Assembly: GCF_003334335.1 (NCBI RefSeq)
Contig: NZ_QOWQ01000157.1
Reading direction: 5' to 3' (one strand)
DNA: 697 nt
Source: Escherichia coli
GTDB lineage: Bacteria > Pseudomonadota > Gammaproteobacteria > Enterobacterales > Enterobacteriaceae
Shown piece after piece: positions 1 through 697 of this stretch; position 1 is the first letter of the stretch; every line of letters begins with the position of its first letter. Below the pieces are notes generated by a model that made no database searches, was not told the origin of the DNA, and was given only the letters and a program-made list of their open reading frames with translations. The translations under genes and the position numbers were made by a program.

Positions 1-697
1 CTGGACCGGCTGGTACAGCAGGGCGGCTTTGACGGGCGGACGCAACGTTATCATTATGACCTGACCGGAAAACTCACACAGAGTGAGGATGAGGGACTTG
101 TCATCCTCTGGTACTACGATGAATCGGACCGTATCACTCACCGCACGGTGAACGGCGAACCGGCAGAGCAGTGGCAGTATGATGGCCACGGCTGGCTGAC
201 AGACATCAGCCACCTGAGCGAAGGCCACCGTGTTGCCGTCCACTATGGCTATGACGATAAAGGCCGCCTGACCGGCGAATGCCAGACGGTGGAGAACCCG
301 GAGACGGGGGAACTGCTGTGGCAGCATGAGACGAAACACGCATACAACGAGCAGGGGCTGGCAAACCGCGTCACGCCGGACAGCCTGCCGCCGGTGGAGT
401 GGCTGACGTATGGCAGCGGTTACCTGGCGGGAATGAAGCTGGGCGGGACGCCGCTGGTCGAGTATACGCGGGACAGGCTGCACCGTGAGACGGTGCGCAG
501 CTTCGGCAGCATGGCAGGCAGTAATGCCGCATACGAACTGACCAGCACATACACCCCCGCAGGCCAGTTACAGAGCCAGCACCTGAACAGCCTGGTATAT
601 GACCGTGACTACGGGTGGAGTGACAACGGCGACCTGGTGCGCATCAGCGGCCCGCGACAGACGCGGGAATACGGCTACAGCGCCACGGGCAGGCTGG
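1..697 (+). CDS. rhs: Internal fragment (5' and 3' partial) of an Rhs-family YD-repeat core protein, the beta-shell scaffold of a polymorphic toxin; both gene ends lie outside the window
   Basis: Seen in sequence: frame 1 is open for all 232 codons. Frame 2 has TGA at 62-64 and frame 3 has TGA at 30-32. The translation begins LDRLVQQGGFDGRTQRYHYDLTGKLTQSEDEGLVILWYYDESDRITHRTVNGEPAEQWQYDGHGWLTDISHLSEGHRVAVHYGYDDKGRLTGE and ends LVYDRDYGWSDNGDLVRISGPRQTREYGYSATGRL. It carries recurring G-x(3-9)-Y-x-Y-D-x-x-G-R-L-T motifs, the hallmark of RHS/YD repeats. Codon usage is CTG-rich with G/C at third positions. Established knowledge: this architecture and composition match the GC-rich core of E. coli-type Rhs elements. 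Core paralogs (rhsA/B/C/D) are too similar to tell apart from 697 nt without alignment, so the symbol is given only at family level. Confidence 0.93.
   Translation, partial: MDRLVQQGGFDGRTQRYHYDLTGKLTQSEDEGLVILWYYDESDRITHRTVNGEPAEQWQYDGHGWLTDISHLSEGHRVAVHYGYDDKGRLTGECQTVENPETGELLWQHETKHAYNEQGLANRVTPDSLPPVEWLTYGSGYLAGMKLGGTPLVEYTRDRLHRETVRSFGSMAGSNAAYELTSTYTPAGQLQSQHLNSLVYDRDYGWSDNGDLVRISGPRQTREYGYSATGRL
34..696 (+). repeat. Tandem array of degenerate YD (RHS) peptide repeats encoded within the CDS, about 20-24 aa (60-72 nt) per unit
   Basis: Seen in sequence: aromatic-x-aromatic/Asp positions recur with a roughly 60-70 nt period. Tyr codons heading the Y-D or Y-G/Y-x dipeptides fall at nt 55, 115, 178, 250, 343, 409, 463, 532, 598 and 670. 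Clear units are GRTQRYHYDLTGKLT (34-78), GLVILWYYDESDRIT (94-138), GEPAEQWQYDGHGWLT (154-201), GHRVAVHYGYDDKGRLT (223-273), GELLWQHETKHAYNEQGLANRVT (307-375), GTPLVEYTRDRLHRETV (445-495), and GPRQTREYGYSATGRL (649-696). The repeats are degenerate at nucleotide level, so this is a protein-level repeat rather than a DNA direct-repeat array. Confidence 0.8.

Follow-up and report, generated by a model that had tools for sequence, protein, structure and literature searches.

A stretch of Escherichia coli DNA lies within the shell-coding core of an Rhs polymorphic-toxin gene, most probably rhsD

Introduction

Tse5 of Pseudomonas aeruginosa (PDB 8cp6) is the closest solved structure to the E. coli K-12 protein RhsD, which it matched with E = 7e-122 over RhsD aa 48-924. 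In the Tse5 shell, 40 YD-repeat hairpins make up an anti-parallel beta-sheet, which winds spirally to form a barrel; the hairpin turns are made by a DxxGR motif and the tyrosine faces the cavity (PMC10684867). Two plugs close the barrel, an N-terminal one (DUF6531) and a C-terminal one that is an aspartyl protease. The toxin is cleaved off by the protease and remains encapsulated until delivery, and a short PAAR-like N-terminal fragment is required for secretion on the VgrG spike (PMC10684867). An equivalent logic of cocoon, autocleavage and type VI delivery applies to RhsA of P. protegens (PMC8765631).

P. protegens RhsA (7q97), Photorhabdus Rhs1/Tre23 (7pq5), Acinetobacter Tse15 (8uy4) and the Salmonella bongori Rhs protein (8qjb-d) all belong to this cocoon family, with C-terminal autoproteolysis and an encapsulated toxin, as would be expected by homology for RhsD. 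Their N-terminal regions (prePAAR/PAAR/TMD, clade domains) are longer than that of RhsD, and their similarity to RhsD is lower (E = 6e-86 to 2e-41). The YD-repeat shell fold is also found in TcB/TcC of Tc toxins and in metazoan teneurins; Tc toxins share the conserved C-terminal plug, whereas in teneurins the toxin-like domain lies outside the barrel (PMC8765631).

The rhs genes of E. coli were divided by Hill and co-workers into RhsABCF and RhsDE core subfamilies, and a GC-rich core followed by an AT-rich core extension was described in the same work (PMC2935791). Regarding the variable tips, Zhang et al. 2012 equate Tox-JAB-2 with DUF4329, pair it with Imm-NTF2-2 and suggest a possible nuclease activity for the JAB-fold toxin (PMC3482391). 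Two later in-silico papers, one of them PMC7216683, label DUF4329 'RNase', which differs from the 2012 prediction. The literature passages retrieved on DUF4329, RhsD toxin activity and YbbC immunity contained no experiment. Here we describe a 697-nucleotide stretch of E. coli DNA, referred to as the window, and compare it with these systems.

Results

Identity and reading frame of the window

The window was identical at 697 of 697 bases, on the plus strand, to rhsD of E. coli K-12 (b0497, WP_000014739.1). Nucleotides 1-696 corresponded to codons 665-896 of the 1426 codons of rhsD in frame +1, and nucleotide 697 was the first base of codon 897. Both the start and the stop of rhsD were located outside the window, and its in-frame Met codons are internal because of this position in the gene. 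Frame +1 contained 232 codons and no stops, and the other five frames contained 1-14 stops each. In a megablast search against 5,426 complete E. coli genomes, 3,864 had a match to the window, typically with five copies per genome, and 1,319 records matched at 99% identity or above. Matches at 100% in which the feature was annotated rhsD included K-12 MG1655, BW25113, C600 and J53. Coordinates of the main features are collected in Table 1.

The 232-aa translation matched the NCBIfam model NF041261 (RHS_core) with E = 2e-148 over its whole length (aa 1-232), collinear with model positions 669-899 of 1261. The score of 496 bits was below the 2000-bit cutoff of the model, which a fragment of 232 residues cannot reach; full-length K-12 RhsD scored 2787.7 bits over model positions 1-1261.

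Comparison with rhsA, rhsB and rhsC of K-12 showed which frame has been maintained. Differences from these genes fell at codon positions 1, 2 and 3 in the ratio 27/21/90, and the codon changes were 63 synonymous and 45 non-synonymous. GC content of the window at the three codon positions was 0.65/0.45/0.76. The third-position bias of the substitutions, together with the codon-position GC, indicates that frame +1 is the constrained coding frame.

On this evidence we consider it about 95% probable that the window comes from the interior of an Rhs polymorphic-toxin gene of E. coli with a core of the RhsD/E subfamily, rhsD itself being the most probable gene. The window is already known as an ordinary rhsD shell segment, and there is nothing new in it.

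Table 1. Positions of features in the window, in K-12 RhsD and at the related E. coli loci.
Feature	Reference	Position	Strand	Basis or score
Internal Rhs core ORF segment	window, nt	1..697	+	K-12 rhsD identity, RHS_core match, Tse5 alignment
YD-repeat hairpin unit, recognisable (RLVQQGGFDGRTQRYHYDLTGKLT)	window, nt	7..78	+	own-repeat HMM 7.7 bits; Pfam RHS_repeat aa 3-28 and 19-52; TIGR01643 aa 19-58
YD-repeat unit with HYGYDDKGRLT	window, nt	178..276	+	Pfam RHS_repeat aa 60-92, i-E 0.0012, best in window; own-repeat HMM aa 81-91, 7.5 bits
Highly degenerate repeats, sub-threshold signal	window, nt	277..615 (aa 93-205)	+	weak own-repeat HMM matches aa 110-125, 179-189
YD-repeat unit (…RQTREYGYSATGRL), continues past window 3' end	window, nt	616..696	+	Pfam RHS_repeat aa 206-232, i-E 0.05; own-repeat HMM aa 219-232, 6.3 bits
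Window in K-12 record	locus L001	L001:9001-9697		
rhsD CDS in K-12 record	locus L001	L001:7009-11289		
DUF6531 N-terminal plug domain	RhsD, aa	46-123		E = 2.6e-18
Strong RHS repeats	RhsD, aa	~320 to 656		
Rhs-associated core	RhsD, aa	1181-1258		TIGR03696 (Rhs_assc_core); Pfam RHS PF03527 also matches
Aspartyl-protease motif DPMG-x18-DPMG	RhsD, aa	1232-1257		
Demarcation motif PLQQIDPMGL	RhsD, aa	1249-1258		
Tip, DUF4329 (Tox-JAB-2), 168 residues	RhsD, aa	1259-1426		E = 8e-37
HTH-x13-SxxD in tip	RhsD, aa	1356-1375		fits published Tox-JAB-2 signature
Orphan Rhs module downstream of ybbC	locus L001	L001:11697-12648		
Paralog at yncH (rhsE) locus, WP_053264705.1, 1402 aa	locus L002	L002:4009-8217		
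Paralog tip, 144 residues	locus L002	L002:7783-8214		
dsORF-e4, 131 residues	locus L002	L002:8229-8624		
K-12 rhsE pseudogene, truncated	locus L003	L003:3891-5939		

YD repeats in the window

The window scored 19.2 bits against the TIGR01643 YD_repeat model (cutoff 15.8). Four matches to Pfam RHS_repeat were found, the best with i-E 0.0012; as all were marginal, the YD repeats in the window are degenerate. For an independent test, a repeat HMM was trained on eight strong repeats of RhsD located outside the window, with 200 shuffles of the window as the null. The window reached 15.3 bits and had three units that exceeded 5 bits; the shuffles scored 0.1 +/- 1.4 bits (maximum 6.5), none of them with such a unit. 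The repeats between aa 93 and 205 of the window were far more degenerate than those of the strong repeat region of RhsD (Pfam E-values to 6e-12), and the alignment of this stretch was continuous and collinear with both the Tse5 barrel and the RHS_core model. Across the full RhsD protein, YD_repeat scored 158 bits in 7 stretches and 8 Pfam repeats had E < 0.001.

The window aligned end to end with residues 571-801 of the Tse5 shell chain (8cp6_B) with E = 2.8e-21. These residues fall within the barrel domain described in PMC10684867, and the window would correspond to mid-barrel hairpins. By homology, it would encode about 10 degenerate YD-repeat hairpins of the mid-barrel cocoon wall, and it would be a structural segment that has neither a catalytic nor a specificity role.

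No tandem repeats were found in the window by Tandem Repeats Finder. A search for direct and inverted repeats in the window gave no inverted repeats and a single 14-nt three-copy family with 86% identity. YD repeats were not detected at the DNA level because they are too diverged. In an Rfam scan with a permissive E threshold, the window gave only a eukaryotic snoRNA match at chance level (19.6 bits, E = 0.17; gathering score 47), which gives no indication of an RNA element.

From the letters alone, the original prediction had placed the window entirely inside an Rhs core, as YD-repeat shell sequence holding no gene start or stop, and had called the fragment conventional. Each of these statements agreed with the comparisons above: the RHS_core match and the K-12 identity for the core; the YD_repeat score, the separation from the shuffles and the Tse5 barrel alignment for the shell; the open frame and the position inside rhsD for the missing ends; and, for conventionality, identity to K-12 rhsD and to more than 1,000 other E. 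coli genomes. The profile search that it had proposed as a check was run, and the translation matched RHS/YD models; teneurin matches of the full protein were far weaker. The absence from the window of the demarcation motif PxxxxDPxGL was likewise borne out, as neither DPxGL nor PxxxxDPxG occurred within the window translation and the motif of K-12 RhsD is located downstream.

Organization of the K-12 rhsD locus

In RhsD, a 45-residue leader starting with MSGKPAARQGD precedes the DUF6531 domain. The Pfam PAAR_motif match at the N-terminus was insignificant (E = 0.15 over 18 residues). Both catalytic aspartates of the aspartyl-protease motif, D1232 and D1254, were present. The GC content fell from 0.63 (rhsD core) to 0.35 (tip) and 0.31 (ybbC), and K-12 rhsD in this respect fits the arrangement of GC-rich core and AT-rich extension described earlier. 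ybbC starts 39 nt past the rhsD stop and encodes an NTF2-fold immunity protein (Imm-NTF2-2, PF15631, E = 7e-26); it is a putative cognate immunity gene of the DUF4329 tip. The upstream neighbour of rhsD is ybbP. Neither vgrG nor an hcp or PAAR gene was found in the ~7 kb upstream or the ~7 kb downstream of K-12 rhsD.

RhsD and Tse5 were collinear in a short N-terminal region, the DUF6531 plug, the YD-repeat barrel and the DPxG...DPxG protease plug. They differed in the spacing of the protease motif (x19 in Tse5 and x18 in RhsD) and in the tip, which is a pore former in Tse5 and DUF4329 in RhsD. Tse5 loads on VgrG1c, whereas K-12 rhsD has no linked vgrG. From sequence homology only, RhsD may form a beta-cocoon closed by N- and C-terminal plugs.

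An orphan Rhs module was observed downstream of ybbC. It is a 236-residue fragment in which the end of the core is retained (DPIGL…PVNGIDPLGL) and a different tip comes next, to which Pfam SAA (serum amyloid A) matched weakly (i-E 0.0013); an 86-residue ORF (NF011297) lies after the fragment. Pfam and NCBIfam searches gave no confident family for the orphan tip. This layout is that of a 'dissociated tip' in the C-terminal displacement model (PMC2935791; PMC3150448). The rhsD tip of EDL933 is reported to be SAA-like (PMC7216683), so the K-12 orphan may be an older rhsD tip that was displaced by the DUF4329/ybbC module.

Related modules were also observed elsewhere. K-12 RhsB carries a Tox-JAB-2 tip homologous to that of RhsD (53% identity, HTH motif shared), and YhhH, the RhsB immunity protein, was homologous to YbbC (56%). 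As the cores of RhsD and RhsB are 77% identical, related toxin modules sit on divergent cores.

A second locus with the identical window

The exact 697 bases were also found, at 100%, in the arrangement yncG-yncH-vgrG-rhs-dsORF-e4 in strains AR_452, S56, Cn5 and W150. The rhs gene at this yncH (rhsE) locus lies directly after vgrG, and the N-terminus of its product was identical to that of RhsD. At the DNA level it was identical to rhsD over rhsD nt ~1601-3000 and 90-98% identical in the flanking core segments; the two proteins were unrelated after residue 1258. An identical patch amid core segments of 90-98% suggests a mosaic generated by gene conversion between paralogous cores. The tip of the paralog is glycine-rich. 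Neither this tip nor dsORF-e4 matched a Pfam or NCBIfam family, and the two are an unclassified putative toxin/immunity pair.

Because the exact window is present at two loci, its assignment to rhsD or to the vgrG-linked paralog is probabilistic; in the second case it would still be Rhs core, of a different gene. The complete identity in the four strains named above favours the paralog as the source, as does an evenly spaced sample of the matches, in which 5 of 11 rows at 100% were named generically and not rhsD. Against it, 27 of the 30 best matches listed, all at 100%, were annotated rhsD, K-12 laboratory strains among them, and the K-12 tip together with ybbC was found in 1896 genomes. The match listing shows one tied best place per record, and strains listed at the rhsE-type locus may for this reason also hold an identical rhsD copy. 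We consider origin from the paralog possible but rather unlikely, and the window probably derives from rhsD.

The 918-nt query covering the tip and ybbC was recovered in several strains, including ATCC 8739 and 55989, as 2-3 pieces spread over 1.7-2.5 kb. IS1 transposases were annotated under these split matches, which indicates that IS1 had inserted in the toxin/immunity region.

Other K-12 rhs copies and a decayed remnant

Truncated rhs remnants exist, and the window could in principle be part of one, like the rhsE pseudogene of K-12. Compared with the intact AR_452 locus, K-12 rhsE carries a deletion of about 4.4 kb that took out vgrG together with the 5' ~2.2 kb of rhs; the base at which homology starts again corresponds exactly to window nt 206. 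The interruption of the rhsD tip/ybbC region by IS1 in several strains also points to decay. However, K-12 rhsE was only 92.7% identical to the window, covered only nt 206-697 and did not contain nt 1-205, whereas the window is intact, open in frame and 100% identical to full-length genes. A remnant is thus a very improbable source.

The RhsA, RhsB and RhsC proteins, of the RhsABCF core subfamily, share their architecture with RhsD and have a collinear core, and they are 7 residues shorter across the window. Their genes were 76.6-77.3% identical to the window in DNA and their proteins matched it at 177-180 of 232 residues. These K-12 identities agree with the published division into RhsABCF and RhsDE cores.

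Other protein families and the antisense frame

A different beta-rich YD-repeat protein (a teneurin-like protein, TcB/TcC of a Tc toxin or an adhesin) was also considered. Full-length RhsD did match teneurins (E = 3.5e-27 to 3e-11) and YenC2/TccC2 (E = 8e-8 to 4e-5), but bacterial type VI Rhs effectors matched at 7e-122, tens of orders of magnitude more strongly, and the YenC2 and TccC2 matches covered only the C-terminal plug (aa 1194-1321). At E <= 0.001 the window alone had no match among teneurin and Tc chains, and full-length RhsD exceeded the equivalog cutoff of RHS_core. Membership in one of these families is therefore hardly credible.

Equally negligible is the idea that a minus-strand protein is encoded by minus frame 2, which has one stop per 232 codons: its only stop lies opposite the sense TTA at nt 568-570, rhsA, rhsB and rhsC show an equivalent by-product with 1-2 stops, the substitutions track the third positions of the sense frame and the promoter signal was not above chance. 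The antisense frame is nearly open because it is in register with the sense frame, so that only sense TTA, CTA and TCA codons can give it stops, and these are rare in a GC3-rich gene.

Two regulatory-like sites were seen within the coding sequence, a sigma-70-like match (TTGACG-17-CATTAT, window 29-57, plus strand) and a terminator-like hairpin (window 289-264, minus strand). With one of each against 0.2 +/- 0.5 expected, both were regarded as chance.

Discussion

The window is best read as a piece of the RhsD shell, and its likely role can be outlined by comparison with Tse5 and its relatives. In such a scheme the DUF6531 plug and the aspartyl-protease plug (DPxG-x18-DPxG) would close the RhsD barrel, and the protease would cut after PxxxxDPxGL and release the toxin within the shell. 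Carried on a type VI secretion spike, the shell with its cargo would then enter a neighbouring cell, and a small immunity protein, encoded immediately downstream, would protect siblings of the producer. The sequence comparisons themselves show the identity of the window, its frame, its family, and that the K-12 gene has the motifs, the tip and the immunity gene; we infer the fold, autoproteolysis, delivery and toxin activity of RhsD from its homologues.

E. coli K-12 is not known to have a type VI apparatus, and this and the lack of an adjacent vgrG suggest that the K-12 copy of rhsD is probably not deliverable. The original prediction had noted that Rhs proteins are often linked to type VI secretion. 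That linkage did not hold around K-12 rhsD, where none of the expected genes was found, and it did hold at the yncH locus, where vgrG adjoins rhs. The prediction had also put the toxin and immunity region off-window, which the K-12 record confirmed with the DUF4329 tip and then ybbC downstream. Its caution about judging the tip from this fragment proved well founded: at two loci the same 697 bases are followed by unrelated tips, and the fragment cannot identify the toxin payload.

If the window came from the paralog at the yncH locus, the off-window toxin would be of an uncharacterised type, possibly membrane-active, and the 1.4-kb core patch, 100% identical between the loci, would mark a recent gene conversion. 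The window itself is a textbook shell fragment of an Rhs toxin; it matters little in its own right, being the structural rather than the informative part of the protein.
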